A stretch of 64,000 nt of DNA from an uncultured virus (IMG/VR IMGVR_UViG_3300025071_000009) (IMGVR_UViG_3300025071_000009); one strand, 5' to 3'. Counted from the stretch's first letter, positions 12,187 through 42,935 are shown. The notes: generated by a model from the sequence alone, not told the origin. A program made the numbers and translations.

Positions 12187-13359
12187 TTATTTTTTTATGC
12201 CTGCAAGCTTCTGCATCTTCTCTTTAAAAGAATCTTCAGATTGCTTGCTTTCTTTAATGTTTTGTCTCGAATTCAACATAGAACTTAAGTTCGATCTTCG
12301 GTTGACAGACTCGCTCAGTGATTGTGGGCCTCTTTTGCTATTAGGCGTCGACCCCACTGTTGCTTTGAGTGTCTCATGAAGTTTTTTAGCTTCTTTCGGA
12401 GACTCCGCATTTGAAATGGCTTCGACAATTTTTGACTTTTGTCGCTCATTCAGGGAGATGTCATTCAATGTACGGTTTTGATATAAAAGTTTTGCGTTGG
12501 ACAATAGTGTTTCCTCAAGATAGACTTCCATCTTGGATAGGACGCTTTCCATTTGATTGTTCTGGTTCGTCAGAAACTCTAATGTCTCGTTTAATTCGTT
12601 TACGACACCCATAGTGTCGTCTTCATCTTCAGAAGCTTCTTCAGCTTCGGCTTCTTCGGGATCTGGATATATAATGTTTGCCATTGATGCGATGAAATCT
12701 TCTTCGCTTTCATTATGTCTCCAAACTCCTTTGGCTGCAGTTCTAGGTTCAAAATCAATGGGGACCTGCTTCTCTTCGATAACTTCCTCTGATCCTTCAG
12801 ATAGCATATCTAAGACTTCTTGCAGTTGCAAATCCATGTCGTCTCCACCGTCGTCAAGGATGTCGTCTAAGCCACCTTCGGTATCACCAGAGGGTGTATC
12901 CATTCCAAGATCATCAAGACCCCCTAGAGAGTCATCCAGGCCACCATCAGCGGCATCTGCTTCATCTTGCTCTAGTGAAAAGTCTCCAAGGTCTAAATTA
13001 ATCATTCCATCGACAGGGTCAACTGGTAAGTCCTCCACAAGAGCTGAAATTCTTGTGTATAAATCTTCTGTTCCGGGTCGACTATCATATGCACCAAGTG
13101 CTTCGATTGGAGCAGTAGTTTCGGGAGCAGAAGCACCGACAGCCGCAGCAGCGGCTTCCTCTTCTTGCATTAATTCATTTTCAACTTCATTGATGATTTC
13201 ATCAACTTTGCTGGGAGGCTCTCCCATCTCTAACATTTGATCAACAGCTTCTTTGATTTGCTTTGAATATTTGTCGAGAACGGATTGTTCTGCGTTCTTG
13301 ATGGCCTGCTCTCTAAGAGCCGCAGCATCGGCAATTGCTTGTTCTAACATGCTAGACAT
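12187..13359 (-). CDS. Prohead scaffolding/core protein, gp22-like
   Basis: Very acidic, coiled-coil, immediately upstream of the major capsid gene. Many L/I-x-E sites and the C-terminal MQKLAGI motif. Confidence 0.8.
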   Translation of the reverse strand: MSSMLEQAIADAAALREQAIKNAEQSVLDKYSKQIKEAVDQMLEMGEPPSKVDEIINEVENELMQEEEAAAAAVGASAPETTAPIEALGAYDSRPGTEDLYTRISALVEDLPVDPVDGMINLDLGDFSLEQDEADAADGGLDDSLGGLDDLGMDTPSGDTEGGLDDILDDGGDDMDLQLQEVLDMLSEGSEEVIEEKQVPIDFEPRTAAKGVWRHNESEEDFIASMANIIYPDPEEAEAEEASEDEDDTMGVVNELNETLEFLTNQNNQMESVLSKMEVYLEETLLSNAKLLYQNRTLNDISLNERQKSKIVEAISNAESPKEAKKLHETLKATVGSTPNSKRGPQSLSESVNRRSNLSSMLNSRQNIKESKQSEDSFKEKMQKLAGIKK

Positions 13360-23390: not shown

Positions 23391-23585
23391 TTAATCCTTG
23401 TTCTTCTTGATCCGTGATCTCCATTTTTTACGTGCGAGTCTCTTTTTCTCAGAGTCAGAAGTAAAATGTCTGTGATCTCGGACTTCTTGAATGATTCCAA
23501 GTTTCTTGCACTTTTTGGTAAATCGTTTGATGAATTTTTCCATCGTCTCGCCTTTGCGAGGTTTCATTTTGTAATTGGTAGCCAT
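23391..23585 (-). CDS. rpsU: Phage-encoded ribosomal protein bS21
   Basis: MATNYKMKPRKGETMEKFIKRFTKKCKKLGIIQEVRDHRHFTSDSEKKRLARKKW fits the bS21 pattern (E..E..L/IKRF.K.....G...E.R....F...SE.KR). TAATG overlap with the upstream gene. Confidence 0.85.
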   Translation of the reverse strand: MATNYKMKPRKGETMEKFIKRFTKKCKKLGIIQEVRDHRHFTSDSEKKRLARKKWRSRIKKNKD

Positions 23586-24010
23586 TATTTTCCCTTTGCT
23601 AATTTTGACCAAATAGCTGAAGACATTCCGAAAGCTGAGATATCAACGCCGGGATCATTTGGTGCAACACCCTCAAGGGCTTTTGAACCATGACCTCCGG
23701 AAGATTTGCCTGCTGCTTGTTGACTCAAAGGCTTTGTACCTTCAAACAAGTCCACACCATTGTATGCATCGGACCCGATTGAGTCAATCATTCTTCGTCG
23801 GTGTTCTTTCAGTTTTCTTTGCTGTGCTTCTTGATCTATTTGTGGTTTTTGATAAGTGGGTTGAGTTCGGGTTTCGACAATACGTTGACCACCTGTTCCC
23901 TTGACAACCTCTGAAATGATTCCAGAGAGAACTCCTTCTTCAAAAATTACCTCTTTGATACACTCTTTGATGAGTGGCTTTAAGGTTTTTCTTAATTGTT
24001 CTTTGTTCAT
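23585..24010 (-). CDS. Head-associated hypothetical protein
   Basis: Abuts the protease gene. Its N-terminus MNKEQLRKTLKPLIKECIKEVIFEE resembles the repeated leader motif. Confidence 0.6.
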   Translation of the reverse strand: MNKEQLRKTLKPLIKECIKEVIFEEGVLSGIISEVVKGTGGQRIVETRTQPTYQKPQIDQEAQQRKLKEHRRRMIDSIGSDAYNGVDLFEGTKPLSQQAAGKSSGGHGSKALEGVAPNDPGVDISAFGMSSAIWSKLAKGK

Positions 24011-24634
24011 TTAATCTCCAAGAATCTTTTTAAATAGATTGTCAATATTGTTTTCTTTTTGTTCTCGCAACTTTGTCGAGAATCTAGTTGGCTTTCTAGA
24101 GCTTTCGCCCGGATAAACATAGGCATCTGGGGTTGATGGTTCGGACACGATATCAAAGCAAATTAGTTGGAAGTCTTCTTCTACAACTGTTGTTCCCATA
24201 GATTCTCGAACAGATCCAAGTCCACGAGATGAAATCCCAAGCTTAACACCAGCATTGATGAGGTCCTTTAGGATTCTACCGCTAGGAGTGTCTAAGACCT
24301 TGATCTTGCCCATTACGTCCTTGCCTTCCCACCAACAGTCTGTGACCATGTGAGAAACGTTCTTAAGGTTAATTACGGAGTCATCAGGGTGATCTAATTC
24401 ACCACACGCTCTGTTGTCTTTAACGATAGCCATGTAATTATCCATCTCTCTCTTGAGAACTTTGTGTGGATACTTACGACCGTTTCCATTCTTTTTGTCC
24501 GCAGTCTGAATCCGACCAGTCAAGTAGACCGCGCCATCTTCAACAACTTCTCTCTTTTCTCTTTCAGTTAAGAGATCAAGGCACCTTCCATCCGGACAAA
24601 GCGCATGGAACTCTCTTAGTAATTGTTTAGACAT
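24011..24634 (-). CDS. gp21: Prohead core protease, T4 gp21-like
   Basis: NGNGRKYP, GELDHP (catalytic His), GISSRGLGS (catalytic Ser), FDIVSEPS. Start MSKQLLRE at 24634. Confidence 0.95.
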   Translation of the reverse strand: MSKQLLREFHALCPDGRCLDLLTEREKREVVEDGAVYLTGRIQTADKKNGNGRKYPHKVLKREMDNYMAIVKDNRACGELDHPDDSVINLKNVSHMVTDCWWEGKDVMGKIKVLDTPSGRILKDLINAGVKLGISSRGLGSVRESMGTTVVEEDFQLICFDIVSEPSTPDAYVYPGESSRKPTRFSTKLREQKENNIDNLFKKILGD

Positions 24635-24650
24635 TCTTCTCTCCATTAAT

Positions 24651-27569: not shown

Positions 27570-28100
27570 TTATTTATCATATCTTGAAAGAACCGGTTGG
27601 TAATTTCCAAGTAATCTCATTATTGTTCTATCAATTCGGAGATAAGTCACACGTTTGCCTATTTTCGCAGTTACTGCTGTAGGGCTACCTGCTTTATCTA
27701 AGACTCTCTTAACAGCATTTATTTTCATCAATTCAGGAACCAACTCTATCACCCTAGAAAAGATCGAAGTCCCAGTAGAGTCTGGGTCGTAAAAATCGTT
27801 TAAGTTTGTTGAGTCTTGGAGTTTTTCCATCTCTTTAACAGCGGTCATAAGTTTGACTTCATCACTCATTGGCTTACTAGTAGGGTACTCACGACCAACC
27901 AAAGTTTGGCCCATCACTTCGACACCACCGGGCCCAAGTGCAGCGAATACATCGTCAGGATCTTTGCCCATGTCTCTAATGTATTGTTTAAATTCGTCTT
28001 CTTTATCTTTTGAAAATTGGCGTAACAATTTAGATTCGTCCAAAACAGCTTCGAGCTCTTCTTTGATAATTTGCTTAAGTGCTTCTTTGTTAAGTTTCAT
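27570..28100 (-). CDS. Leader-motif cassette protein 1 (MKLNKEALKQIIKEE)
   Basis: Shared 22-aa leader followed by a unique domain. Start overlaps the portal 3' end. Confidence 0.75.
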   Translation of the reverse strand: MKLNKEALKQIIKEELEAVLDESKLLRQFSKDKEDEFKQYIRDMGKDPDDVFAALGPGGVEVMGQTLVGREYPTSKPMSDEVKLMTAVKEMEKLQDSTNLNDFYDPDSTGTSIFSRVIELVPELMKINAVKRVLDKAGSPTAVTAKIGKRVTYLRIDRTIMRLLGNYQPVLSRYDK

Positions 28101-30015
28101 CTGTGTCTTCCTTTCTGCTTAGTGATTCAATCAGCGACTTCATTTCGCTGCTTGTGTTAAATAGTTTCTCTTCTTCATTTTCATTTTCTTCATAAATCCC
28201 TCTCGCTAATGAGTCAAGCCCACCAAAGCCAACCTTTCCGGGAAAGGTTGTTCTAGATGTTGACCCACGAACTTCTCCGCTAAATGCTTGGTTCTTCATT
28301 TGCTTCGCGAACCCGCCCTTACGATAAGAGATCTTGTGCTTCTTGTATGGACCTCTCTTATTTGGTTTTGAGTCATCATCACGCTTCGCTGGTGGCTCGG
28401 CTAGTAAATCTGGTTCATCTCCTGCAGCATCTGCAGCAGGTGCATCGCCTCCAAGATCATCTCCACCTAAGTCTCCTCCAAGATCATCTCCACCTAAATC
28501 TCCTCCAAGATCACCACCTAAGTCTCCACCTAGGTCCCCACCACCGGCGTCTCCACCTTCAGGTGCAGTGCCTGCTGCTTCAAGTCCAGCCATGAACTTT
28601 TTGTCTGAGAACATTTCTCTTTGCATTCTCAAATATTCGTCTTGAGATAATCCAAGTAGATTTTCAGAAACCCAACGACGTGAGAAATAGCCCTCTGTTG
28701 CTGCTCCAGCAATATCAAACTTAGTCTTCCAGTGTTCTAGCTCTTGCATCTCGGCAATCTTAGATGGATTGTTGAGACTTAGTTTAAAGTTTAATAAGTC
28801 ATCACCACGATACCCAAGAGTGTATAGGTGAACAATTCCGATCTTTTCAAGTTCAGTGATCAATACTCTTTGTAGCCTTTGGATTGTTCTGGCAAATCTA
28901 ATGTCTTTTTGTGCGAGAGTTGTCTTATCCTCAGTGGAACCTTCTCCCATGGAGAGATACGATTGAGGAACTTTTAATGCTGAGAACAATTTGTCGCGGA
29001 GATACTTCACGTCTTCGATCTGTGCTGTGAATGCTCCACCAGGTAGATTTTCGATGTTGGTAGAAGACTGCCCACCCTTAACTGGTATAAAATAATCTTC
29101 CTCAATCGATAGTGGATTGTAACGCAAATCCACACGACCAGATGTGGGATCTACAACTTGGTGGCGCTTCATTTGTGTCATGACTTTTTGCATGTACCCT
29201 TCGACATCTTGAGGTGCGATTCCACCGACGTCAATTTTAAACACACGCCGTTCTGGTGACCTTGTAATGCGGTAGGCCATCATTGCGTCCTCGAGGAGCG
29301 TAAGTTGTCTCCAGATGCGTCTAGAGGGTTCTAAAGCCGATGTTCCGTATGGAGCATGTTTGTCGTTTCCAAGAACTCTAAAGTGAGCCATTTGCCAATT
29401 CTCTAGAGTTAGTCCGGCTGAGTTCCACTGAAACTGGACGTAGTTTGGGTTTGTTGGGTCTTCACCTTCAAGCCTTTCAACTTCTTGAGGTGGGAGTCCA
29501 ATACAATTTTGTAATCCCTTCTCTTCATCCAGATCTAAGTATAAAAACATGTCTCCATACTTACACATAGTCCTAGCCCAACCAAAGAGATTGTGTTCGA
29601 TATTCATTACACTGTAATATAGTGAATGTAGAATATATTTAATTTCATCATTCGGACACTTAATGTGGAGCATTGGAGTCAATGCTGAGTGAGTGGTCAT
29701 CTCGTCTGCGTAGATGTCGAGAGATGATGCGATTTCAGGTGTGAATTCCATTTGGTCGAAGTCGACGTAACGCTCTGAACGGTTTCTGTTTGTAATCATG
29801 TTCAAAGCCATGACGTTCATCGGATTATATTCAGTCTTCTTGAACTGTTGGCCGGATGCGGTTCTAAATCTTTTTGCATACATATCTAAATGCCGGCGTC
29901 TTATTTGTCTGCCTGACTGGGTTCTTCTCTGTGTTAGAGGTCCCGAGAACATTCTTGTTAAAGATTTAAATAAGTCATTCTTATTATTATTAGGGTTTCT
30001 TTCGTTACGAGCCAT
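28090..30015 (-). CDS. gp20: Portal protein, T4 gp20-like
   Basis: LLEDAMMAYRITRSPERRVFKIDVG, EEDYFIPVKGG, IEDVKYLRDKLFSALKVP, FARTIQRLQ. Gly/Asp-rich tail. Confidence 0.95.
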   Translation of the reverse strand: MARNERNPNNNKNDLFKSLTRMFSGPLTQRRTQSGRQIRRRHLDMYAKRFRTASGQQFKKTEYNPMNVMALNMITNRNRSERYVDFDQMEFTPEIASSLDIYADEMTTHSALTPMLHIKCPNDEIKYILHSLYYSVMNIEHNLFGWARTMCKYGDMFLYLDLDEEKGLQNCIGLPPQEVERLEGEDPTNPNYVQFQWNSAGLTLENWQMAHFRVLGNDKHAPYGTSALEPSRRIWRQLTLLEDAMMAYRITRSPERRVFKIDVGGIAPQDVEGYMQKVMTQMKRHQVVDPTSGRVDLRYNPLSIEEDYFIPVKGGQSSTNIENLPGGAFTAQIEDVKYLRDKLFSALKVPQSYLSMGEGSTEDKTTLAQKDIRFARTIQRLQRVLITELEKIGIVHLYTLGYRGDDLLNFKLSLNNPSKIAEMQELEHWKTKFDIAGAATEGYFSRRWVSENLLGLSQDEYLRMQREMFSDKKFMAGLEAAGTAPEGGDAGGGDLGGDLGGDLGGDLGGDDLGGDLGGDDLGGDAPAADAAGDEPDLLAEPPAKRDDDSKPNKRGPYKKHKISYRKGGFAKQMKNQAFSGEVRGSTSRTTFPGKVGFGGLDSLARGIYEENENEEEKLFNTSSEMKSLIESLSRKEDTDET

Positions 30016-30018
30016 TTT

Positions 30019-31596
30019 TTATCCTTTGTATATCCACAAAAAGTTTTTTGTTTTTTCTATCTCCTCCTCGTATTTCTGCTCGAACGTTTCTTTATAGATC
30101 TTTTGGCCTTTGATTTGAGTATTCATCGTTGTTGTCGACTTCATCAAACCACCGATCATTGCCTTTTTGTAAGCCATGTCTCTTTCATTTTCTGATAGGG
30201 CCGTGTCTCTCACCCAGCATGCGATTGCTAGGGACATAACCAAATCATCATTGTAAGATCGCATTGCTTGAGGCTTGCCGTTGTGCCAAATAAAAGTTTT
30301 TAGTTCGTGAAAAACACGATTAGAGTGTATATTAATTAGTTTGTTTCTAACGTATTCTTCCAATTTGGCTACGATTAAGGGTCTTGTCTTGGTTGACGTT
30401 GTAAAGCCAAGCACGGCTCTGTCGTCATTCTCGGCCAAATAAGACTCGACATAATCATGAGTTGACTTGATTGAGTAATATATTTTTTTATACTCTAAGT
30501 CTTTTAATTTTTCCAAAACGGCTATGCCGATTCCATTATTTTCCACGACTAGAAGGCAAGTCCCATATTCACTTCCGGCTGAATAGAGTATATCTGCGTA
30601 CATGTCCAAGTCTGGTTTTCCTTGGTATTCGGCTACAACGGTCATAGTGTCCACTCTTAATATGTGGAAGCAAGAAAAATCAGTACCATCTCCACGGGCA
30701 ACATCAGCTACCAAAAGATATGGAACTCCTTCTTCATGCCTTTCCCAAATCCAATAGTTTCTGTCGTAACCGGTTTTATATTTTGGATCCGTAACTCCAG
30801 CATGTAATATCTGTAAGTCTTCTGGATTAATGACTGTCTCACCAGATGCATTGAACGAGCACTCAAGCTCCTGCGCGATTTGCCTCTTGGACATATTTCG
30901 CGTCTCTTTTGAGAACCACTCTTCGTCTCTCTCAGGGTGTACATCCCACATTAACTTTGTGGGAAAGAAATCATTCATTTCATTCTCAGCTTCAGTGTAA
31001 GACTTGTGGAACCAGTTTCCAACGCCGTTGGGGGTGCTCAGAGCGATACAGCGGCCCCCTGTAGACAAAGTAGGGTAAAGACCCGTCCAAAGCTCTTCAA
31101 GGCCGTCAACGAACGCTGCCTCGTCTATAATGAGAAGCGACAGTGCTTCTGAACGACCAGCATCGCCTGATGTGGTTCCGGCTTTAACTTGAGAACCGTT
31201 TGTCAACTCGAATGATTGCTTGTTGTCTGTTGCGATTTTCGCAATCATCATCCACGATGGAAGGTTCTTGAAGATCATCTTGACCTTCTTTACTAGATTC
31301 ACAGCTGTGGATAGTTTTGTTGCGATTACGAGAACATTCTTTTCTCGGTGGAATAACATGAACCAAGCGACATAAGCAGCCGAGATGGTTGATATCCCGA
31401 GCTGCCTTGCTTTTAAAATTACGTTAAAACGGTAATCGTTAAAGTTTTTGAGCATGTCCTTTTGATAGTCATACGTCTTAAAAGGGATTTGCCCGTGCAT
31501 TGGATGGGAGATCTTACAATAATTATCAATGAAGTATTGAGGATCTTTTCCGCATCTTACAAGTTCTTTAACAATTTCATTTTTGGTGAGTTTCAT
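30019..31596 (-). CDS. terL: Terminase large subunit, T4 gp17-like
   Basis: KARQLGIST (Walker A), LIIDEAAF (Walker B), STPNG, nuclease ADVARGDG...DDLVMS. Confidence 0.95.
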   Translation of the reverse strand: MKLTKNEIVKELVRCGKDPQYFIDNYCKISHPMHGQIPFKTYDYQKDMLKNFNDYRFNVILKARQLGISTISAAYVAWFMLFHREKNVLVIATKLSTAVNLVKKVKMIFKNLPSWMMIAKIATDNKQSFELTNGSQVKAGTTSGDAGRSEALSLLIIDEAAFVDGLEELWTGLYPTLSTGGRCIALSTPNGVGNWFHKSYTEAENEMNDFFPTKLMWDVHPERDEEWFSKETRNMSKRQIAQELECSFNASGETVINPEDLQILHAGVTDPKYKTGYDRNYWIWERHEEGVPYLLVADVARGDGTDFSCFHILRVDTMTVVAEYQGKPDLDMYADILYSAGSEYGTCLLVVENNGIGIAVLEKLKDLEYKKIYYSIKSTHDYVESYLAENDDRAVLGFTTSTKTRPLIVAKLEEYVRNKLINIHSNRVFHELKTFIWHNGKPQAMRSYNDDLVMSLAIACWVRDTALSENERDMAYKKAMIGGLMKSTTTMNTQIKGQKIYKETFEQKYEEEIEKTKNFLWIYKG

Positions 31597-31615
31597 CTAA
31601 CCTCGATACTATATC

Positions 31616-31954
31616 TTATGGAACAGCGGTAGTTGTGTAAATTTTTCCTTTGTATCCCATTATTTTCATTTGATCTTGCAATGCCATTGTTGGATAATTC
31701 TCTCCCTTAAAGGCAGGATGTCTATAAGCTAAATGTCTGAGAACTTTGGCTGACCAATCATAGTTCTTAGGACCCCTTTCTAGCTGGTCAATTCCCCATT
31801 TCAAAGCTTTTTTTTGCTCATCATTGAAGTCGTATGCGACCCCCATGGACGCCTTTGGCATTGGAAAATCACCACCCGCAGTGTATCCCTCATCAACAAC
31901 TTGCTCTAGTTCTTCTTTGATGATTTGCTTTAATGCTTCTTTTGTGAGTTTCAT
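31616..31954 (-). CDS. Leader-motif cassette protein 2 (MKLTKEALKQIIKEE)
   Basis: Shared leader. ATGA overlap with the upstream gene. Confidence 0.75.
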   Translation of the reverse strand: MKLTKEALKQIIKEELEQVVDEGYTAGGDFPMPKASMGVAYDFNDEQKKALKWGIDQLERGPKNYDWSAKVLRHLAYRHPAFKGENYPTMALQDQMKIMGYKGKIYTTTAVP

Positions 31955-32511
31955 TTCTGATTATCCTTTGGGCTGATCTTTTCATTTTGGGGACGTTTTG
32001 CTTTCGCGGTCTCCAAGAATTTCTTTGTAATATCTCGAGTGGTGGTTTCCGATGGTGCATTAATTTGATCCATCTTAAGTCCGCCAATCTTATAGTGTTG
32101 GTAAGCCTGCACAAAAGTACGTACTCGTGAAGTTGTTTGGACGATAATTTTTGGATCACCCTTGCTCGTCAAAGATACTGATTTACCAGTGATTGTCTTA
32201 TATTCTTTTTGTAAGAACTTCTTGACTTCGTTCAATGTTCTGGTAATTTCGTTTTCAAACCCATCGTCTTTCAAATCTCTCATCATAACATCGGATTGAT
32301 AGTTAATGATCATTGAGTCTCCATAAAACTTGACCTTGAAGCCGTCAATGACTCGTTTGTCAAGAAGAGGAATTCCTTCTTCTCGCATGAGACCAATCTT
32401 GCGAACTTGTCCGTCGTGTGAGTAGTTTTCCATGTGCTGGGCGCCATCGTATGAACCGTTGGCTGCTGCTTGGCTAAGTCCTCTAATAATTTCTAATGTT
32501 TCTTTGCTCAT
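31951..32511 (-). CDS. Hypothetical protein
   Basis: 186-aa ORF with SD AAGGAG. Confidence 0.7.
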   Translation of the reverse strand: MSKETLEIIRGLSQAAANGSYDGAQHMENYSHDGQVRKIGLMREEGIPLLDKRVIDGFKVKFYGDSMIINYQSDVMMRDLKDDGFENEITRTLNEVKKFLQKEYKTITGKSVSLTSKGDPKIIVQTTSRVRTFVQAYQHYKIGGLKMDQINAPSETTTRDITKKFLETAKAKRPQNEKISPKDNQK

Positions 32512-32536
32512 TGGCTATCTCCTTATTTTAAACAAA

Positions 32537-32887
32537 TTAAGCTTGTGGTTGCTCACCATCGATGGCGAAGGCGCCCTTTGCCATGAGATCGATGGTGATG
32601 GAAGTCTTTGATGGCTCAATCTGATCGTCCGGTTGACCTGTGTAGGTCTCGTAATCAAATCTGACGGAATCTTGATCGCCACTGGAACCAATAGCTTCTG
32701 CTGCTTTGTTTTCCAAGTCGTTTAGTGCATTCTGCTCAAACCTATCATCATTGTTAAGCAAATGGTCATACGCGTTTTGATAAGCGTCATTGAACTTTCC
32801 GAGATTAAGTTCTCCGTATTCCTCGCGCATTACTTTGCCCAATTCTTCTTTGATAATTCTTTTTAGTGTTTCTTTTGTAAGTTTCAT
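32537..32887 (-). CDS. Leader-motif cassette protein 3 (MKLTKETLKRIIKEE)
   Basis: Start re-assigned to the ATG at 32887 (SD GGAG). Acidic unique domain. Confidence 0.75.
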   Translation of the reverse strand: MKLTKETLKRIIKEELGKVMREEYGELNLGKFNDAYQNAYDHLLNNDDRFEQNALNDLENKAAEAIGSSGDQDSVRFDYETYTGQPDDQIEPSKTSITIDLMAKGAFAIDGEQPQA

Positions 32888-33279
32888 TTGTTTGGTCTCC
32901 AACCTGATTTTTGTTTTCTTTATCTCAAGTCTAGCAAGCCTTGCACCATTCCTGAAACAACTGATTCAATTGCGGTCGCATCATTTTGGCTAGAAATTGA
33001 TTCTGGGACTCTCTTCATAATGTCTGGTGTGAACTTTCCAGCAGCATCAGTCTTTGGGTCTACTTGAGCATCTCTCATGTAGTTGCTTACGACACCATAC
33101 AGGACATCTACTGATCCTTTCATCATGCCCGAGGCCCAATTTTTAATCTTTTCTTCCATTTGGGCGCTCTTAGAGGGTCCACTCATGCCGTATCCTTCAT
33201 CTAGAAATGCTTGCATTTCTTCTTTGATAATTCGTTTTAATGTTTCTTTTGTAAGTTTCATAATTTTGGTCTCCAACCT
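32843..33279 (-). repeat. Direct repeat of about 60 nt (period 374 nt) spanning gene end and leader
   Basis: AGGTTGGAGACCAAA is identical at 32891-32905 and 33265-33279. Each copy is followed after 3 nt by ATGAAACTTACAAAAGAAACA. Confidence 0.85.
32920..33261 (-). CDS. Leader-motif cassette protein 4 (MKLTKETLKRIIKEE)
   Basis: Start re-assigned to 33261 (ATGA overlap with the upstream stop). Confidence 0.75.
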   Translation of the reverse strand: MKLTKETLKRIIKEEMQAFLDEGYGMSGPSKSAQMEEKIKNWASGMMKGSVDVLYGVVSNYMRDAQVDPKTDAAGKFTPDIMKRVPESISSQNDATAIESVVSGMVQGLLDLR

Positions 33280-33629
33280 TTTTTCCATCTTTCTTCTCGG
33301 CCTTCTATCCACTGGATATAACACTTGTTGCAACAACCAAATTTCGTCATATATAAATCATCAACGGATTTGAATGAATAAGTGTTACAAGTTGGACATG
33401 AACGCTCGGATTCTTTATTAAGTAGTTCTTTTGATATTAAAACTCCACCAAGCTCCACTCTTTCGCTTTCCGATTTATCATTGCGATAGTTTGACTTCAG
33501 TTCAGCTAAATACTCTTTTTCTTTCTCATCATCCCATTCTGACTTGGGGTTCACTATGGCTTCTTTACCATATCTTTCTGCTATGGCTTTCTCAACCTTT
33601 ACAGCATAATTTGGATCTTTTTTACTCAC
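33258..33629 (-). CDS. Zinc-finger hypothetical protein
   Basis: GTG start at 33629 with SD GAGG. CPTC...CCNKC, ending WKKGWRPKL. Confidence 0.65.
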   Translation of the reverse strand: MSKKDPNYAVKVEKAIAERYGKEAIVNPKSEWDDEKEKEYLAELKSNYRNDKSESERVELGGVLISKELLNKESERSCPTCNTYSFKSVDDLYMTKFGCCNKCYIQWIEGREERWKKGWRPKL

Positions 33630-34050
33630 TTTCACCTCGTTTTTGCCAATCATAAGAAACCTTATCTTTTTCGATAGGTCCACCTTTTGCCCACGTATAG
33701 CAGCTACGAGCGGAGTGACACTTGAAATTATGCATCCAACAGTAGCCAAGTCGTCCATCATCATCAGATGTTGTGCCGGGCATGCACTCATCCATTCTGG
33801 GGCTTATATCGAAAGCAACGCAATTCCCACAAAGCGACTTCTTTGCTGCATCCACGTCTGTATCCCAATGTTCTGCGATGTCTTCCCAGTATTCTCCAGG
33901 CTCATCGACGTTCAAAGGTCCGTATTTGATATGCTTAGCTTTGATTGCTGAGTCTCTGTTTCGAGTATTCAACTCTAGATCTTGAGTCGGCTTTGGACAG
34001 ACCATTCCTATTATTTTTTGAATAGATTGTTTTATTTTAATTCGTATCAT
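33622..34050 (-). CDS. Cys-rich hypothetical protein (metal/Fe-S binding candidate)
   Basis: CGNCVAF...C...GYCWMHNFKCHSARSCYTW. Confidence 0.65.
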   Translation of the reverse strand: MIRIKIKQSIQKIIGMVCPKPTQDLELNTRNRDSAIKAKHIKYGPLNVDEPGEYWEDIAEHWDTDVDAAKKSLCGNCVAFDISPRMDECMPGTTSDDDGRLGYCWMHNFKCHSARSCYTWAKGGPIEKDKVSYDWQKRGESE

Positions 34051-34444
34051 TTATATTCACCACTGCGTAATATGTCGCAAGAGAAGACGCTGTTCCCAAC
34101 GTAAAGCCTCCAAAAAAGATCCACATGGATCTTTTAGGATTGACGTGCTTGCGCAAGGTTTGGATTTCCTGGTCTCGGATCTCCATTAGTGCATCGTGCT
34201 TCTTTTGCAAAGTTTCCTTTTCAATGCCTAAATAGTCAATTTCTAGTTGTTTCTCTGCTAATTGTAGAGAATAATCTAACGACATTTGGATCTCGCATTG
34301 CTCCTCAGCGAACTCTTTCCCTGCTATTATTGAAGCCACTGCTTCATCGTTGAATAGTCTGCCACCAAAAGGAGCCGCCTGACCTTTATCGAGAGAGGTC
34401 ATGAGCGGCTCGGCAGAGACTAATGAAATTACTAGTAAAATCAT
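34037..34444 (-). CDS. Signal-peptide + coiled-coil + C-terminal TM protein (spanin-like candidate)
   Basis: MILLVISLVSA/EP signal, heptad region, terminal WIFFGGFTLGTASSLATYYAVV. Confidence 0.45.
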   Translation of the reverse strand: MILLVISLVSAEPLMTSLDKGQAAPFGGRLFNDEAVASIIAGKEFAEEQCEIQMSLDYSLQLAEKQLEIDYLGIEKETLQKKHDALMEIRDQEIQTLRKHVNPKRSMWIFFGGFTLGTASSLATYYAVVNINDTN

Positions 34445-34812
34445 TTTAGTTTTGCGATGTTATATTCTTCCATCAAGATACGATCAATAGCATCAGGGTC
34501 TTCTTTTGCTAATTCAATCAGCTCAAGCTTTCTTTCAATATCGTGCTTTTCTAAGTCTGTCTGGGCGGTGTTTCTCTTCTTCATTAGAGCAAGTCGTGAT
34601 TCAGAATATTTTTTTCTTGCGAGAGATTTCTTTAGTATCTCATCAGAAGCTGTCTTGACGATAGTTTCTATCTCTTTCTCTTTTGCTGTTGCGGAGGCTT
34701 CAGCTACTTGGACCTGTTTTTCTTTAGTCTTCCTTCCAAGAACAAATACAAAAAGGACGACGAGTCCAGATGCAACAAGTTCCCACTTATCTTTAATCCA
34801 ATCCCACATCAT
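34441..34812 (-). CDS. N-terminal TM + coiled-coil protein (i-spanin-like candidate)
   Basis: WELVASGLVVLFVFVLG followed by a charged coiled coil. Confidence 0.45.
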   Translation of the reverse strand: MMWDWIKDKWELVASGLVVLFVFVLGRKTKEKQVQVAEASATAKEKEIETIVKTASDEILKKSLARKKYSESRLALMKKRNTAQTDLEKHDIERKLELIELAKEDPDAIDRILMEEYNIAKLK

Positions 34813-35003
34813 CCGTTTCTCCATGCTGTTGCGAAGTCAATCGCTGTTTGACCGCCAATATAAGTAACTGCGATCATCCCCCATGTTTCAGAGCTTAAGT
34901 CTGAAAAGTACATTAGAGCTGTTGCTACTGCGAATACTAAAAGCTTTCGAGAGATAACCTTCTCCTGAACAGCATCGAGCATCCCTTTGTCTTCGTTTTC
35001 CAT
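34809..35003 (-). CDS. Small two-TM holin-like protein
   Basis: SRKLLVFAVATALMYF...WGMIAVTYIGGQTAIDF. Start MENEDK at 35003, with ACTATTTA at 35029-35036. Confidence 0.5.
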   Translation of the reverse strand: MENEDKGMLDAVQEKVISRKLLVFAVATALMYFSDLSSETWGMIAVTYIGGQTAIDFATAWRNG

Positions 35004-35044
35004 AATAAAATCCTCCAAAAGAATGCTCTAAATAGTCGCTTTGA

Positions 35045-38000
35045 TTACAATTTTACTTGTGCATACCCATCGGTCTTATCTATATCTATCGACATGTCAA
35101 CGACATCCTTCAGACTTTCGAGGTGCGTAATTAAGAGAACTGTTTTAAACTGTGTCTTAATCATTTGTAACAGTCTAGCGAAGCCTTCCATGTGTTCTGC
35201 GTCTAGCGCAGTCGCTGGTTCGTCGAGGACAAATATGTTGGACTTTGGAAGAGAAGATACAGAGATCAAAGCAAGTCGAACAGCCATAGACGCGATTGTC
35301 TTTTCTGCACCAGAACCCATTGACAATGGCCGAGGATCGTACTTTGGATGCTTGAGGTATATCTCGAGCTTTCCTCCGTCTTCTGCGAAGAATACTTGAA
35401 AATCAACAATTGAAGAAAGCACCTTTTGTATCTCTTCATTGATAACTGGTAGCATGGACTTAATGACTTCATAAGAAATTCCATTTGGATGGGTTGCTTT
35501 CACAAAAATATCATAAGCAATGTAGTCCCGCTCAGCGTCTTTGATTTGTTGAATTCTCTCAGAAGCTTCATGAATCATCCTTTCAGCAGACCCCTTCTCA
35601 GACATAAATCCCAGAACTCTCTCTTCACAGCGTTGAATCTCGGCTGCTTTTATGCTTACAGTTTTGGTAATCGCACTCAAATCTCCTTGTAGAGATGTTA
35701 GATTCTCATATGCTTCGATGTTATCGCTATAGTAAGCAATGTCTGACTCACAGTCGTTGATTTTCCTCTCCATCAATGAAACCTTTCCTTCGCAGTTTTC
35801 CCGCTTTAAGGACATGTTGCGAACTTCAGATTGCTCCCTTGTTAATGTGTCGCGTTGGACTTCATAGTCTCGGACAATTGCTTCTGAATAAACTTCGTTA
35901 ATCAGCGATGCTTTCATTTTCAAGTCAAGCATTTCGGAATTAAGAGCCTCTATGTTCTGAATAACGTCCACAATCGTAACCTTTGCTTCTTCTGCTTTCT
36001 TAACAAACTCGTTGTTACTACAGAAGCTGCAATCTGGATCGTACTCATGGTCGTGCAACATGTCTATCTTGGATTGTAGCCTAGATCTTTCTCGTTTTGC
36101 TTTTTCAGCAGCCTTGTGGGTTTTGCTTATTTGTTCTTTGAGTAAAGACAGTGTTTGCAATTCTTCCTTTGCTTGAACTGACTCCTCGAGCAAACTAGGC
36201 AATCTAAGGCTTAAATCTTCAATTTGAGATCGTTTTGATGCTATCTCGGTAGATAGCCTAGCCATCTCTTTAGAGTTGCTTGAAAGCGATTTACGAGCTT
36301 TTAAAAGATTCTTTTCTACGCTTTCGATGTTTATTTCTTTTTGTGATGCAGCATCGACTTGATTCTTTATCAATTGCTGCTCTTCTTTCAAGGTCTCGAG
36401 TCTAGATACGTGCTTTGTACACAAGTCTCTTTGGGTTGCAATATCTTCCAAGATCTCTGACAACTCAGCATTTGCCCTAGACAGTTTCCTGCCCCAATCA
36501 GCGGACTGGAGGTGTTTAATTACTCCTCGCATTTCTGCTGAGTCTTGCTTTGCTAGTTTGTGCATTTGATCAAAGATTTGTAAATCTAAGAACTTAGCCA
36601 AGATTTCTTTACGCTTTGTCGAGCCTTCGTTGATAAATCCAAAGGAATCGTTCTGTGCTGCTAATGAGGTCATCATGAAATCCTCTAGAGATCCAAACGT
36701 ATTTCTTATGTTTTCATCAGTCTTATTTCGAGTGTCGCCATTTTTAGACTCGGCGATTGTACCAAAAGTATACTTTGTGAAGTCTAATTCTGTTTTGGCT
36801 GAGTGGCTTTCTTTGCCTTTAGAGCGGATGGTTGTTTTTTCGAGGCTTCGAGTAACTTTGTATAGATCATCACCGACAGCGATCTCGAGCTTACAAAGAG
36901 CTCTTTCTTGGTTTTGATTGATGATATGGACATTCTTTCTTTCTCCCTTTGATGTTGTATTAAATAATCCGAAGAGAGCAGCGTCGACAATTGAAGATTT
37001 GCCTGAATAATTCTTTCCGAAGATACCAACCAAACCATTGAGTTTGGAGAAGTCCAACGTGTTGCCCTTTCCGTAGTTAAATAGGTAGTTCCATTGCATT
37101 TTCTTAATATCCCAAACAACATTACGTGACGTTCCTGTTGAAGTGTCTACTTTCTTTAGGTACTCTCGAGATAATTCTACAACTTTCTCGCGGATAGAAT
37201 CATCAATTTGTTGATCCGACATAAATTCTCTTAAGAATTTTTCTTGATTCTTTGGGTCTCTCATGTTTAGTGCCCTACCATTCTTAGCGGAAGATACTGC
37301 GCCTGTTGCTGATGAATTATTAATAAAGCTAACGGAATGGGTTGACCATTTTACTTGTGCATAATCGCATGCTCTCTTTAGTTTGGCCATAGGCAAGTTG
37401 TGATTACAAACCAAACGCAATCGAGAATTCTTGGGAACATCTGCTTTGGGCAAAGTTCCGTCTTGATTTAGCTCTATTGTTACAAATGGTCGTGGCGAGC
37501 GAAATAATCTTTTTTGAATGGTGTGCTTTTCTTTAGAGTGAATGTTCCAAATTAAGTAACCTTTTAATTGAGATTCTCCAAAGTTCTGCTGAACAGTTGA
37601 ACCACAATACCACACTCTTCCTTCGACATCCAAGTGTTGGGTGCGATGGATATCTCCAAGCATCGCGTAATCAAAGTCAGAAAAAATTGATAAATCATCC
37701 TCACCGTGATCCAAAGAAAATCCGGATCCCACCTGAGATCCACGGACGGCGCCATGATACAATGCAATATTAATTGACTTTGAATTGGAAGGCGATCTCC
37801 AATTGTCTCTATCGAAGACAGAAAGGACATTGAATGTAACGCCTGGTTCAGGGGAATACTCTCCTGAGTTCTTAAGTAAAGTGAAGTTTGGATGTTGCAT
37901 TGCTTCTGCTATAGGAGTAACTGCATCTTGCCGGTCTCCATTCTTAAGGTTTCCGTCATGATTTCCAAGAATCATAATTGTTGGTGCAATGTCCGATAGA

Positions 38001-38200
38001 GACTTTAAAAAGTTCGAAGCCATCTCAAAGTATTCTGGTGATAACTGTGTCTTTGTATGAGCAAGATCGCCGGTGTGTACAATGTAGTCGGGTTGCTCTT
38101 GCTTTAGGGAGTCATATATTTGATTAAATACGTGTCGATATTCATCGTGATATTTAAGGTTTCTAATATGTGTGTCTGAAATGTGTGCGATGCGCTTCAT
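35045..38200 (-). CDS. Fused SbcD/Mre11 nuclease - SbcC/Rad50 ATPase (gp47-gp46-like fusion)
   Basis: Phosphoesterase motifs ISDTH, TGDL, GNHD, GDIH. Walker A GKNYSGKSS, zinc hook CSFC, signature SGAEK, Walker B FVLDEP, and ITH. Confidence 0.92.
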   Translation of the reverse strand: MKRIAHISDTHIRNLKYHDEYRHVFNQIYDSLKQEQPDYIVHTGDLAHTKTQLSPEYFEMASNFLKSLSDIAPTIMILGNHDGNLKNGDRQDAVTPIAEAMQHPNFTLLKNSGEYSPEPGVTFNVLSVFDRDNWRSPSNSKSINIALYHGAVRGSQVGSGFSLDHGEDDLSIFSDFDYAMLGDIHRTQHLDVEGRVWYCGSTVQQNFGESQLKGYLIWNIHSKEKHTIQKRLFRSPRPFVTIELNQDGTLPKADVPKNSRLRLVCNHNLPMAKLKRACDYAQVKWSTHSVSFINNSSATGAVSSAKNGRALNMRDPKNQEKFLREFMSDQQIDDSIREKVVELSREYLKKVDTSTGTSRNVVWDIKKMQWNYLFNYGKGNTLDFSKLNGLVGIFGKNYSGKSSIVDAALFGLFNTTSKGERKNVHIINQNQERALCKLEIAVGDDLYKVTRSLEKTTIRSKGKESHSAKTELDFTKYTFGTIAESKNGDTRNKTDENIRNTFGSLEDFMMTSLAAQNDSFGFINEGSTKRKEILAKFLDLQIFDQMHKLAKQDSAEMRGVIKHLQSADWGRKLSRANAELSEILEDIATQRDLCTKHVSRLETLKEEQQLIKNQVDAASQKEINIESVEKNLLKARKSLSSNSKEMARLSTEIASKRSQIEDLSLRLPSLLEESVQAKEELQTLSLLKEQISKTHKAAEKAKRERSRLQSKIDMLHDHEYDPDCSFCSNNEFVKKAEEAKVTIVDVIQNIEALNSEMLDLKMKASLINEVYSEAIVRDYEVQRDTLTREQSEVRNMSLKRENCEGKVSLMERKINDCESDIAYYSDNIEAYENLTSLQGDLSAITKTVSIKAAEIQRCEERVLGFMSEKGSAERMIHEASERIQQIKDAERDYIAYDIFVKATHPNGISYEVIKSMLPVINEEIQKVLSSIVDFQVFFAEDGGKLEIYLKHPKYDPRPLSMGSGAEKTIASMAVRLALISVSSLPKSNIFVLDEPATALDAEHMEGFARLLQMIKTQFKTVLLITHLESLKDVVDMSIDIDKTDGYAQVKL

Positions 38201-38517
38201 TTGTCCTCCAGGATTTTATTGCGTACTTTTAATGTAACACGTTCATCTTCTTGTGTCAAGTAAAATTGTTCATCTTCTTCAAAAAATAGCGGCCCTCCTT
38301 CCATATATGTGAGAGATAGAGTGTTATACTCAAACCACTCAATCGCAGTTGCGTACTCCCATTCGTAATATTTACGTGAGCAGTCCATTAACTGTTCTGT
38401 ATCATAAACTAATCTGCCTCTATCAAAAGCCACTATCGAATCATTGTAGCACTCTTGTGGTTCTATTACGATAAACTCATAGCCTTTTTTGACGGCATCG
38501 TCTATAAACTTGTTCAT
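38197..38517 (-). CDS. Hypothetical protein
   Basis: 106 aa with SD AGGAGG, AIEWFEYNT...GGPLF pattern, and ATGA overlap with the SbcCD gene. Confidence 0.7.
   Translation of the reverse strand: MNKFIDDAVKKGYEFIVIEPQECYNDSIVAFDRGRLVYDTEQLMDCSRKYYEWEYATAIEWFEYNTLSLTYMEGGPLFFEEDEQFYLTQEDERVTLKVRNKILEDK
38231..38259 (-). promoter_or_regulatory. sigma70-type promoter for SbcCD (intragenic)
   Basis: TTGACA-17 nt (ending CGTGT)-TACATT. Confidence 0.7.
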
Positions 38518-38541
38518 GTTATACCTCCTAATGTATAAGAT

Positions 38542-38570
38542 AATATAACATGTTGAGATTAATTTGTCAA
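38542..38570 (-). promoter_or_regulatory. sigma70-type promoter
   Basis: TTGACA-17 nt (ending ATGT)-TATATT. Confidence 0.75.
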
Positions 38571-38571
38571 G

Positions 38572-38778
38572 TTAACTAAGCAAGTTAATCATTTCAGATG
38601 AGACAACCATGTCGACTTCTCCAAACAAAACAGCGTACCAAACAACTTCCACGCCGTAAAAATCTCCGATCAGTTCGTCAAAAGCAATTACTTCCAAAAC
38701 AATGCCGACATTCGGAATGGTTTCGCTTTGAAAATCCTCAATAAAGATAACCAAACTTCCAACAACAATATCTTTCAC
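38572..38778 (-). CDS. Small SH3-like/beta-rich hypothetical protein
   Basis: VGSLV...VGIVLEV...WYAVLF. SD GGAGG, with ACTATTTA at 38796-38803. Confidence 0.55.
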   Translation of the reverse strand: MKDIVVGSLVIFIEDFQSETIPNVGIVLEVIAFDELIGDFYGVEVVWYAVLFGEVDMVVSSEMINLLS

Positions 38779-38820
38779 ACATAACCCTCCACTAGTAAAT
38801 AGTGTCGAGAGTAGCGGAAG

Positions 38821-39726
38821 TTATTCGATGTGGCCGGTTCCTACGACGGACCATTCGAGTTGTACGTCGACATAGCCATTGAGTCCTTCGTAAGGAACTC
38901 TTTGTTGGGAAAATCTTGTCATATGAATCGCAGTAAGTGACCAATAGGGATAGGTCTGAAAGTAAGATCCATCAAAGGACATGTAGCCACTATCTGGTCC
39001 CGAACATGATGCGACACCAAGAAGTTGACTTCCATCTGAGGAATAGGTTGCGATTGTGATATTGAACAGGTCCTGTCCTCCGGATGGTCCCCATGAGAAT
39101 TGTGTTCCAAACTTTGACACAACTGCTGCGAAGGCATAGGATGGGTCTACATAGCGCATCTCTAGAGGCTCAATAAAGTCAAAGCCGTGAATAGATCTGA
39201 ATTGGAACGATGTTCCATCTTGAGTTTGCACATTCATTTGAGTGTCTCGGTCATATTGTGATTCCGTCAAGAACCCACTATAGATGTTCGAATTGTTGTT
39301 AAACGCTGTGAATGAATTGGGATTACCAAATACATTGATTGATGAGCCGATGTTCTTTCCTTGCACGAAGATGGACACAGGATTCATTGAGTTTACGCAC
39401 TGTCCTGATGGTGGATACCATGTTGGATGTGTCTCGCCTATTTTGTCGTGGAACTTTGCTTCGAATTGAATAGTGATCTCTTGGGATACGCCCATGCATT
39501 GTAGACAAGCAATTTGCTCTAGATTGTAGTTTACAAGCCCAACAGTACCCTCTAGAGGCTCATCCGACGGTTCCGTTGATGGTTCGATAGCCGGTTCACC
39601 AGAAGGCTCTGTGGACGCTTCTGTTACGATGTCCGTATCTTCAACAGATGTATCTAAGACTTGGACCTTGTCCGTTGTTCTAATTCCGATGTCTCCACCG
39701 CAGGCCAAAAATAAGGCTAATAGCAT
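38821..39726 (-). CDS. Putative lipoprotein
   Basis: MLLALFLA-C lipobox, EPS(T/G/D)EP low-complexity linker, beta-rich globular domain. Confidence 0.7.
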   Translation of the reverse strand: MLLALFLACGGDIGIRTTDKVQVLDTSVEDTDIVTEASTEPSGEPAIEPSTEPSDEPLEGTVGLVNYNLEQIACLQCMGVSQEITIQFEAKFHDKIGETHPTWYPPSGQCVNSMNPVSIFVQGKNIGSSINVFGNPNSFTAFNNNSNIYSGFLTESQYDRDTQMNVQTQDGTSFQFRSIHGFDFIEPLEMRYVDPSYAFAAVVSKFGTQFSWGPSGGQDLFNITIATYSSDGSQLLGVASCSGPDSGYMSFDGSYFQTYPYWSLTAIHMTRFSQQRVPYEGLNGYVDVQLEWSVVGTGHIE

Positions 39727-39734
39727 GATAACTC

Positions 39735-39944
39735 CTAGTGCTCTATAACAATTATGTAACCGAGGAACTCGCCTCGCTCATATTCTAGATCGTAGTAGCT
39801 CAACAATGAACAAACAAGATCCTTCATGGCTTCTGAGTTTCCGGTAACAACCTTCATCCTGCTTCGCCAATTGCTATTAATAAATAGTTCGAGTTTGCGT
39901 TTAGCATCTTTATGCTTAGACCCGTGAAGGTCTAGTGTTTTCAG
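39735..39944 (-). pseudogene. Smr-domain ORF lacking a canonical start (CTG start or decapitated gene)
   Basis: Translates LKTLDLHGSKHKDAKRKLELFINSNWRSRMKVVTGNSEAMKDLV...GYIIVIEH*. LDLHG and VVTG are Smr hallmarks. No in-frame ATG/GTG/TTG upstream before a stop. Confidence 0.65.
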
Positions 39945-40285
39945 ATTTCGCCGTTCAAGAATGCAACAGCCTTTTCTATGGTCATCTCATTGCCGTCGAT
40001 ATTAACTTGCGGCTCTCCTTTTTCTGTAGAGGGTGATGCGATGATGCCACGTTCGTCTCCTCTAAACTGGCTATTGGGGTCGGTTGATTCATATTCAACA
40101 TCTAAAGTGTCACCATTTCTTTCAATTTTAAAGTTAGTGAAGTCACCGTTTATGGCCTCAAGCCGATGCTGTAGTTCTTTCAATGGCTCGGGCAAGTCGT
40201 TGGTTTGTTCAGAATCCATTTCATGCATAACTTGCATCATCTCTTCTTTGATGATTCTTTTTAATGTTTCTTTTGTAAGTTTCAT
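39941..40285 (-). CDS. Leader-motif cassette protein 5 (MKLTKETLKRIIKEE)
   Basis: Shared leader. SD AGGAG, with ACTATTTA at 40324-40331. Confidence 0.75.
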   Translation of the reverse strand: MKLTKETLKRIIKEEMMQVMHEMDSEQTNDLPEPLKELQHRLEAINGDFTNFKIERNGDTLDVEYESTDPNSQFRGDERGIIASPSTEKGEPQVNIDGNEMTIEKAVAFLNGEI

Positions 40286-40350
40286 TTGTGGACTCCTAAG
40301 TCTTTGGTTTGGTGATCTTCACTTAAATAGTCACTACGTGTGCATAGTGC

Positions 40351-42877: not shown

Positions 42878-42896
42878 ATGTCCTCCGTGTCTTATT

Positions 42897-42925: not shown

Positions 42926-42935
42926 GTTAAAATCT

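Follow-up and report, generated by a model that had tools for sequence, protein, structure and literature searches.

Capsid-targeting peptides of known phages and the leader of an uncultured myovirus

The internal proteins (IPs) of phage T4 are made with propeptides of 10-19 residues that target them to the core, and are reported to co-purify with gp22 (PMC9026906). In a review of the T4 head, the internal proteins of T-even phages are presented as a diverse set whose one common element is the conserved capsid-targeting sequence (CTS) (PMC3012670); conservation of the CTS is reported for IPII and IPIII (PMC9958956), and the T4 review literature suggests that this peptide may be an evolutionary device for the packaging of varied proteins (PMC9026906, PMC3012670). 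The prohead protease gp21 is described as cutting after Glu at L/I-X-E (PMC9026906) and as taking propeptides of 10-19 residues off the internal proteins and a 65-residue stretch off the capsid protein gp23 (PMC9026906, PMC9958956). By these accounts, a short N-terminal address on diverse internal proteins that is clipped by gp21 is already established for T4 and the T-even phages. Here we analyze a stretch of 64,000 nucleotides (hereafter, the window) from an uncultured virus (IMG/VR IMGVR_UViG_3300025071_000009) which is an uncultured marine T4-like myovirus and in which five small proteins with dissimilar bodies share a 22-residue N-terminal leader. With moderate confidence, we interpret this leader as a capsid-targeting propeptide, the counterpart, in a marine lineage, of the CTS that the internal proteins of T4 carry, longer and far more widely used than the latter.

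The T4 CTS, which is removed by gp21 from IPI, IPII, IPIII and Alt, resembles the leader in being a short N-terminal peptide that is joined to unrelated mature parts and ends in hydrophobic-x-Glu. In both cases, the prohead protease of the genome belongs to S77, the portal is of the gp20 type and the capsid protein of the gp23 type, the genes that carry the peptide are partly scattered outside the head cluster (for the leader, in the leader-carrying genome G023, see below), and the first residues are faintly similar (MKT[YF][QK]EF in T4 and MKL[TN]KE in the leader). The leader differs in its length, 22 residues, or 14 if cut at I-K-E, compared to the 10-19 given for T4 (PMC9026906), and in its spread, with 5-7 or more leader genes in a genome and 5,888 protein clusters in metagenomes, whereas the T4 CTS is reported to be conserved in IPII and IPIII. 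Furthermore, the tails attached to the leader are mostly acidic, copies of the leader occur also inside long multi-module open reading frames (ORFs), and targeting and cleavage, established in T4, are only predicted here. The leader proteins gave no sequence or fold match to the mature T4 proteins IPI-IPIII in Pfam, PHROGs or Foldseek searches.

Other described systems are less similar. In the giant phages phiKZ, 201phi2-1 and SPN3US, where gp21-like proteases cut the propeptides of head and ejection proteins, several head proteins are reported to be processed by cuts after Glu in a three-residue motif, and some paralogs, such as SPN3US gp53 and gp54, have common N-termini (PMC5694885); however, the sites described there have a small P3 residue (S/A/G-X-E or A-X-E), and their propeptides often exceed 100 residues. 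In the leader, by contrast, P3 is one of L, M, V and I for 89 of the 97 unique sequences, and the peptide is short and almost the same on proteins that are otherwise unrelated. For the DarB protein of phage P1, the N-terminal 30 residues, a length close to that of the leader, are reported to suffice for sending a foreign protein into the capsid (PMC9024508); that signal is described for DarB rather than as a leader common to unrelated proteins, P1 is not T4-like, and the likeness is one of description. The leader peptide strings were not found in the literature text that we searched, where the topical matches consisted only of work on T4, giant phages and P1. In encapsulins, a short shared cargo-loading peptide directs diverse cargo inside an HK97-fold shell; as a rule, such peptides stand at the C-terminus and attach directly to the shell protein, and they are not known to be cut off by a maturation protease. 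What is new here is a different, longer leader in a lineage known only from metagenomes, its presence on many genes per genome and on thousands of protein clusters, its fixed exchange slots, and its internal copies in multi-module ORFs.

Five genes of the window begin with the same leader

The five ORFs, all on the minus strand, begin with MKL[TN]KE[AT]LK[QR]IIKEE, followed by Glu at position 22 (E22). They encode a 176-amino acid (aa) protein whose slot immediately follows the portal gene (27570..28100, leader codons 1-22 at 28035-28100, 48.3 bits with a hidden Markov model, HMM, of the leader); a 112-aa protein directly after a conserved 186-aa gene (31616..31954, leader 31889-31954, 50.6 bits); a 116-aa protein starting from the ATG at 32887, with an acidic tail of isoelectric point (pI) 4.1 (32537..32887, leader 32822-32887, 48.6 bits); a 113-aa protein starting from the ATG at 33261, directly after a conserved 177-aa gene (32920..33261, leader 33196-33261, 51.2 bits); and a 114-aa protein with an acidic tail of pI 4.2 (39941..40285, leader 40220-40285, 47.0 bits). 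The preliminary description of the window had pointed to these ORFs, and the common N-terminus was indeed found at each of the five positions, the HMM scores of 47-51 bits being followed by 5.6 bits for the runner-up ORF. Thirteen columns are invariant among the five leaders (M1, K2, L3, K5, E6, L8, K9, I11, I12, K13, E14, E15 and E22).

When up to 3 mismatches are allowed, a degenerate DNA pattern of the first seven leader codons matches exactly the five leader sites in the window, compared to a chance expectation of 0.78 sites, and five matches were reached in none of 100 shuffles. A six-frame peptide scan of the window with up to 6 substitutions found no leader copy beyond the five. Among all ORF starts of the window, 11 pairs share at least 11 of the 16 N-terminal residues; 10 of these pairs are formed by the five leader genes, and the eleventh consists of two tail-tube paralogs. 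The large terminase also starts with MKLTK (31582-31596, minus strand; likewise in G023), with different codons (ATGAAACTCACCAAA) and no further leader likeness. The leader was considered as a Sec or Tat signal peptide, for which a hydrophobic core of some 10 or more uncharged residues would be expected, and rejected as such, given its 10-11 charged residues in 22 and hydrophobic runs of no more than 2.

Past residue 22, the five proteins have no similarity that we could detect: the best E-value in pairwise blastp comparisons of the tails was 0.9, and hhalign comparisons of tail-only alignments, which are shallow (22, 9, 0, 3 and 0 homologs), yielded probabilities of at most 0.2%. Searches of the five proteins against Pfam and PHROGs produced nothing credible. 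Homology of the tails, by which the preliminary description would have had to give way to simple paralogy, was thus looked for and not found.

The leader is a module attached to unrelated tails at fixed slots

We searched IMG/VR with a degenerate DNA pattern for KL[TN]KE[AT]LK[QR]IIKEE, positions 16-22 of the leader being outside the pattern, and obtained 116 matches in 95 stretches (loci). A start codon directly precedes every one of the 116 matches (ATG in 113 and GTG in 3), such that the placement of the leader is strictly N-terminal. Among the 97 unique leaders, the positions outside the pattern are conserved as well (82 of the leaders have L16, 62 have V19, 76 have L or M at position 20 and 82 have E22), and conservation collapses past position 22, the commonest residue at any position from 23 on being present in at most 22 of the 97. 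Among the unique tails, 94 are of usable length, and blastp sorts these into 53 clusters (E <= 1e-3), so that in IMG/VR, as in the window, the leader is a module of its own to which unrelated tails are joined. The complete IMG/VR leader proteins (n=51) have a median length of 112 aa (range 69-207 aa), and the pI of the tails spans 4.1 to 9.3.

At three positions in the 95 loci, the neighboring gene is constant and the tail is exchanged: 17 leader genes with 5 tail clusters are located after the portal gene, 16 with 10 clusters after the 177-aa gene, and 38 with 21 clusters after the 186-aa gene; a further 44 leader genes lie outside these slots. In the window, the 186-aa gene (31951..32511, minus strand) and the 177-aa gene, with Cys-rich motifs (33258..33791, minus strand), set two of the slots; in related contigs, leader genes with differing tails follow directly after the stop codon of the former and directly after the latter. 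The post-portal family, represented in the window by the protein starting at 28100, is distinct in that residues 1-75 are conserved and are followed by one of two unrelated C-terminal halves; this protein resembles a conserved component of the core more than it does exchangeable cargo.

These data bear on the possibility that the leader proteins are fast-diverging paralogs of one ancestral small protein in which only the N-terminal helix is under purifying selection, without true modularity. The uniform size of the proteins, 112-116 aa for four of the five in the window and a median of 112 aa in IMG/VR, is what this scenario would predict, and small proteins can diverge past detection, with the hhalign alignments being shallow. 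However, the lack of tail similarity in blastp and hhalign, the wide ranges of pI and length, with up to 724 aa among the cluster representatives discussed below, the sharp boundary of conservation, the two unrelated halves behind the same 75 N-terminal residues of the post-portal family, and the presence of up to 21 tail clusters at a single slot all speak against it, and we consider such paralogy quite improbable.

The codons of the leader provide evidence on the level at which selection acts. In the five window genes, six of codons 1-15 vary synonymously (3, 8, 9, 10 as AGA/CGA, 11 and 15), and at three the encoded residue itself differs (4, 7 and 10 as Q/R). Across the leaders, codons 3, 8-12, 15 and 16 vary synonymously while the residues are fixed; the variants include TTA/CTA/CTT for L8, AGA/CGA for R10, ATC/ATT for I11 and GAG/GAA for E15. 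Selection at the peptide level, which the preliminary description had derived from the largely synonymous differences, is therefore clear, but it is not the whole account because codons 2-7, 13 and 14 are far more uniform than the background (AAA 0.95-0.99, ACA 0.97, GAA 0.96-0.98), and therefore part of the constraint, or recent exchange, acts on DNA or RNA.

In the extreme, the conserved stretch could be mainly a nucleic-acid element, either a favored translation-initiation region or a recombination handle for cassette swapping, with the peptide a by-product. The uniform codons, the MKLTK start of the terminase and the fixed slots with exchangeable tails would all be compatible with such an element. 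Nevertheless, the eight codons that vary synonymously at fixed residues are at odds with it, as are the different codons of the terminase start and the 37 of 83 internal leader copies in long ORFs (among the best 150 of 5,888 profile matches, see below) that lack Met and hence are no initiation regions. We regard this explanation as very unlikely, more so than the paralogy scenario; a recombination role could coexist with a function of the peptide.

The leader is confined to T4-like contigs with an S77 protease

The window encodes a prohead serine protease of the T4 gp21 type (S77) at 24011..24646 on the minus strand (PF03420, E 5.3e-33; phrog_207, E 3.2e-59), as the preliminary description had stated, and this is the enzyme that we propose for the removal of the leader. 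We searched 42 of the 44 IMG/VR leader contigs of at least 10 kb and detected a T4 portal in 39 and an S77 protease in 28. In these 28 contigs, the protease is located 2.9-7.1 kb (median 4.4 kb) beyond the portal, and the 11 portal-positive contigs without S77 have at most 3.8 kb of sequence on the protease side, so that there is no clear counterexample to the pairing of the leader with the protease. The preliminary description had allowed that the leader might be equally common in phages that lack a gp21-type protease; no such phage was found, the leader being confined to T4-like contigs in which S77 is present wherever the contig reaches far enough.

The sole complete record, genome G023 (183,930 bp), encodes the S77 protease and seven scattered ORFs with an N-terminal leader, one of which adjoins the protease. 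Two further G023 ORFs (starts 58236 and 59110, minus strand) have a more diverged leader-like N-terminus, MKLTT..LKS.I.EVL, and therefore the leader count per genome is an underestimate.

A sister variant of the leader, KITK[ST]QLKQIIKEE, is present in at least 140 IMG/VR stretches. Among the matches listed, a start codon directly precedes 166 of 167, and the sister-variant contigs of at least 30 kb, all of them fragments, encode S77 in 19 of 23 cases and gp23 in 12 of 23. In 185,579 prokaryote species genomes (one per species), a pattern covering both variants matched 11 stretches on 7 contigs, all in metagenome-assembled genomes (MAGs); S77 is present in both MAGs with long carrier contigs (305 kb and 101 kb), as scored per MAG rather than per contig.

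The closest cultured phages are distant, Microcystis phage Mel-JY01 having 45% identity in the portal and 44% in the protease, and Flavobacterium phage immuto 39% in the portal. A tblastn comparison of two leader proteins with 50,697 phage records (low-complexity filter on) turned up no leader; the leader profile gave no match on Mel-JY01 and one weak internal match on immuto. Mel-JY01 has a shared N-terminus of its own in three adjacent genes (starts 60276, 60923 and 62056, plus strand; MIKL[KM]SL..EIISDRVWH), with 6 of the first 13 residues matching the leader in the same register; we discarded these as ordinary paralogs because their mutual likeness runs on into the body of the proteins.

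To gauge the spread of the leader among proteins, a 30-column profile of 87 leaders was compared exhaustively with 1.84 billion representatives of 50% identity clusters (about 15 billion proteins); it replaced a word-index search with residues 1-40 that is unsuited to a short leader and returned only 38-39 candidates. The profile matched 5,888 proteins at E <= 0.001, 81 of them at E <= 1e-10. Among the best 150 of the 5,888, the leader is N-terminal in 145, and 68 contain two or three copies, a share that is not representative because ranking by summed score favors multi-copy proteins. The 83 internal copies in this set include 46 with an initial Met and 37 without, and therefore genuine multi-module ORFs exist, some of which are possible polyprotein precursors. 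Examples among metagenomic ORFs, of 308-724 aa with two or three leader copies, are P0021, P0022, P0025, P0038, P0041, P0046 and P0052. Fusions at the DNA level were examined in the sister set, where, among the matches listed, more than 30 open in-frame codons lie upstream of 22 of the 160 leaders with a determinable upstream stop; this is not clearly above chance open frames, so that the evidence for fusion rests on the long representative proteins. A Pfam scan of 143 of the best 150 matches gave no credible domain, the single hit (S_100) being to the leader itself. The count of distinct cargo that the preliminary description had called for is accordingly large in terms of the 53 tail clusters and the 5,888 profile matches, but yielded no known domain in the 143 proteins scanned.

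A hydrophobic-x-Glu motif in the leader, the capsid protein and a scaffold-like protein

The leader ends with [LMVI]-x-E. E22 is present in 98 of the 116 IMG/VR matches, in 15 the leader is one residue shorter and the hydrophobic-x-E register is kept (ending at 21), and only 3 have neither; the P3 residue of the 97 unique leaders is L in 39, M in 37, V in 7 and I in 6. A second motif of the L/I-x-E type, I12-K13-E14, is part of the invariant core of the leader. Both the E22 ending and the I-K-E core match the L/I-x-E rule of T4 gp21, which makes a cleavage site plausible.

The same type of motif appears in two predicted substrates of the protease in this clade. The gp23-type capsid protein (ORF 10382-12169, minus strand; PF07068, E 2.4e-73) has a predicted maturation site, L57-R58-E59, in its propeptide (11993..12001, minus strand). 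The motif, L-L-[RK]-E, is invariant in the window protein and in all 22 relatives, which were drawn from both leader clades, and falls between the blocks that align to residues 7-44 and 85-136 of T4 gp23, where the deposited mature chain starts with residue 66. Directly upstream of the capsid gene, an acidic, scaffold-like protein of 390 aa without a family match (12187-13359, minus strand) has a conserved N-terminus of 44 residues that ends in [LM]-L-E, with E44 invariant and L43 nearly so in 22 sequences, and is followed by a variable acidic stretch; in the window, the end of this block is M42-L43-E44 (13228..13236, minus strand). If the capsid L-[RK]-E and the scaffold-like [LM]-L-E are cleavage sites, as we infer by analogy, the gp21-type motif of the leader would recur in the clade's own protease substrates, in line with a role as a propeptide.

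By position and composition only, the 390-aa protein appears to be the best candidate for the scaffold. The preliminary description had instead treated 23585-24010 and 26744-27559 as scaffold, and neither of these matches any family. The former, a 141-aa protein encoded directly after the protease gene (23585..24010, minus strand), has an N-terminus that is conserved in G023 and is faintly leader-like (...LKPLIKECIKEVIFEEG); with 4.2 bits from the leader HMM, this segment is not significant and was not counted as a leader.

Structural models of two leader families differ around position 22. In the AlphaFold2 model of the 31954 family, a helix (residues 5-21) is followed by a region of low confidence (19-39) and a small helical domain (45-98), with a predicted local distance difference test score (pLDDT) of 83-90 per block and a mean of 68; in the family alignment, the leader and D21-E22-G23 are invariant and an indel-rich linker comes next. 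As modeled, then, the leader helix would be set off from the folded domain by a linker of low confidence and frequent indels, in line with a removable propeptide. The model of the 28100 family is an all-helical fold with a mean pLDDT of 80 that is considered below. Foldseek comparisons of the 28100 model with the Protein Data Bank (PDB) and of the 31954 model with BFVD gave no match at E <= 0.001, and all scores in an ESM Atlas comparison were <0.8.

A putative late promoter common to structural and leader genes

The heptamer CTATTTA occurs 23 times in the window, compared to 9.7 expected, and 23 copies were reached in none of 100 shuffles; 20 of the copies are on the coding strand. These 20 minus-strand sites, for example, 7344, 9914, 13392, 13401, 38796, 39881, 46727 and 56871, are mostly found 11-64 nt before gene starts. 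The sheath, adaptor and scaffold-like genes are preceded by the motif at distances of 20-48 nt; it is also found 39 nt upstream of the leader gene that starts at 40285 (putative promoter, 40324..40330, minus strand), and 58 nt upstream of the leader gene that starts at 28100 (28158..28164, minus strand). The latter copy is inside the 3' end of the portal ORF, so that coding for the portal protein, and not a promoter, may account for its conservation. In IMG/VR, we compared 91 unique sequences of 100 nt from upstream of leader genes with 115 intragenic control windows; CTATTTA was detected in 23 of the former and in none of the latter. We suspect that CTATTTA is the late promoter of this phage group; putative co-regulation of the structural genes with the leader genes at 40285 and 28100 would fit a packaging role of the leader. 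The late promoter of T4, TATAAATA, was considered and dropped, with one copy, on the non-coding strand, compared to 2.7 expected.

A model of leader function and the evidence for and against it

The features described above can be combined into the following scheme. The leader-tagged proteins would be made alongside the head genes, and during prohead assembly, their conserved N-terminal helix, MK[LI]TK..LK[QR]IIKEE, would bind a component of the scaffolding core. The S77 protease would then cut after Glu at hydrophobic-x-E (E22 in the window) and/or at the invariant I-K-E (E14), and the variable C-terminal part would be freed within the head. The sequences themselves show the modularity of the leader, its strictly N-terminal placement, the motif, the restriction to T4-like contigs with the protease and the exchange of tails at fixed slots; binding, cleavage, packaging and subsequent ejection are inferred.

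Several observations weigh against this scheme. Alignment with the N-termini of T4 IPI, IPII and IPIII (NC_000866) shows only M1, K2 and E6 in common. The tails are mostly acidic (pI <6 for 34 of the 51 complete proteins from IMG/VR, and for three of the five in the window), whereas the T4 internal proteins are described as basic (PMC9026906), so that the leader proteins lack the basic character of these small proteins. In the 28100 family, AlphaFold2 predicts a single helix (residues 5-43) running through the proposed site, which does not suggest an exposed cleavage site. The helical hydrophobic moment of the leader is not above that of shuffled sequences (reached by 18-35% of shuffles); of the amphipathic helix suggested in the preliminary description, the predicted helix stands, but the amphipathicity is weak. 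The codon uniformity discussed above implies a constraint, or an exchange, other than on the peptide. In the sister clade, among the matches listed, hydrophobic-x-E ends at 21 or 22 in 74 of 134 unique leaders, and 44 of the 134 have no such ending at 19-27; therefore, E22 is a feature of the clade of the window rather than of the whole family, and the I-K-E core remains. Clipping at Glu22, as initially proposed, accordingly fits all five window leaders and most of those in IMG/VR, but E22 is not a universal boundary. Finally, the leader is present in no cultured phage searched (50,697 records; Mel-JY01), and its link to the protease could be purely phylogenetic, both being traits of one clade.

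Some of these points would suit an alternative in which the leader is not cleaved but serves as an N-terminal helix by which varied small proteins dock on one common partner outside the capsid, such as a host or phage hub, with hydrophobic-x-E being a feature of the helix end. This would explain why E22 is dispensable in one third of the sister-clade leaders among the matches listed, and the helix that continues through E22 in the 28100 model, the mostly acidic tails, the leader copies inside long ORFs and the location of G023 leader genes far from the head genes, at 7.8, 52-54 and 67 kb, would not be surprising. On the other side, the T4 IP genes are scattered too, and other leader genes are clustered beside the portal, terminase and protease genes. 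Moreover, those leaders that are one residue shorter (15 of 116) retain the hydrophobic-x-E register, and the capsid propeptide and the scaffold-like protein bear the same motif. Given this balance, we deem docking outside the capsid unlikely, if less so than the two alternatives considered above, and retain the capsid-targeting propeptide as the preferred interpretation.

We are more tentative as to what the tails do: that they are ejected effectors is doubtful. A broader and similarly speculative extension, less probable than capsid targeting itself, is that the leader is the universal packaging address of a large uncultured group of oceanic T4-like phages, which loads ever-changing small proteins for co-injection with the DNA, some of these as multi-module precursors that the prohead protease would cut at internal leaders, with new tails swapped into the fixed slots by recombination across the leader DNA.

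Capsid-borne proteins that enter the host with the DNA have been identified for only a handful of model phages. Should the leader be a packaging tag, its 16-22 residues would flag, from sequence alone, candidates for ejected proteins by the thousand in abundant uncultured phages of the ocean, and anti-defense and host-takeover functions could then be sought within a defined set. It would further imply that the principle of the T4 CTS is ancient and usable at a far larger scale, and would provide a second, longer tag with which foreign proteins could be loaded into T4-like capsids. If this interpretation does not hold, an explanation is still due for the conservation of one peptide on more than 5,800 unrelated protein clusters.

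Gene neighborhood and other features of the window

The minus strand carries all large genes of the window. Apart from the capsid protein and the protease, these include the gp20-type portal (28090..30015, minus strand; PF07230, E 8.9e-76), the 3' end of which sets the first leader-gene slot, as well as a T4-type large terminase and sheath, tube and baseplate proteins. Ahead of the C-terminus of the portal, the ORF contains a run of GGDL/GGDD repeats (about 28400-28550, minus strand). Two genes past the prohead protease, a homolog of the bS21 ribosomal protein is encoded (23391-23612, minus strand; PF01165, E 2e-11), and Mel-JY01 has an annotated RpsU at the same relative position. Two proteins with a concanavalin/LamG-type domain (PF13385) are located between the protease and the capsid gene (21886-22932 and 13494-15251, minus strand).

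A 1051-aa ORF (35045-38200, minus strand) joins a calcineurin-like phosphoesterase domain to an ATPase of the SMC/Rad50 type and looks like a fused Mre11-Rad50 (T4 gp47 and gp46). A tRNA-Ala gene (anticodon TGC; 40423-40498, minus strand), with CTATTTA 12 nt upstream, is situated between the primase-side genes and the leader gene at 40285. Sigma-70-like promoters, consisting of TTGACA, a spacer and a TATA-like hexamer, were recognized by eye at 38518-38571 and 42878-42935 (minus strand), before the genes that start at 38517 and 42877, and contrast with the CTATTTA sites. Two very large ORFs (52608-56852 and 56879-63697, minus strand), of 1414 and 2272 aa, have no Pfam match.

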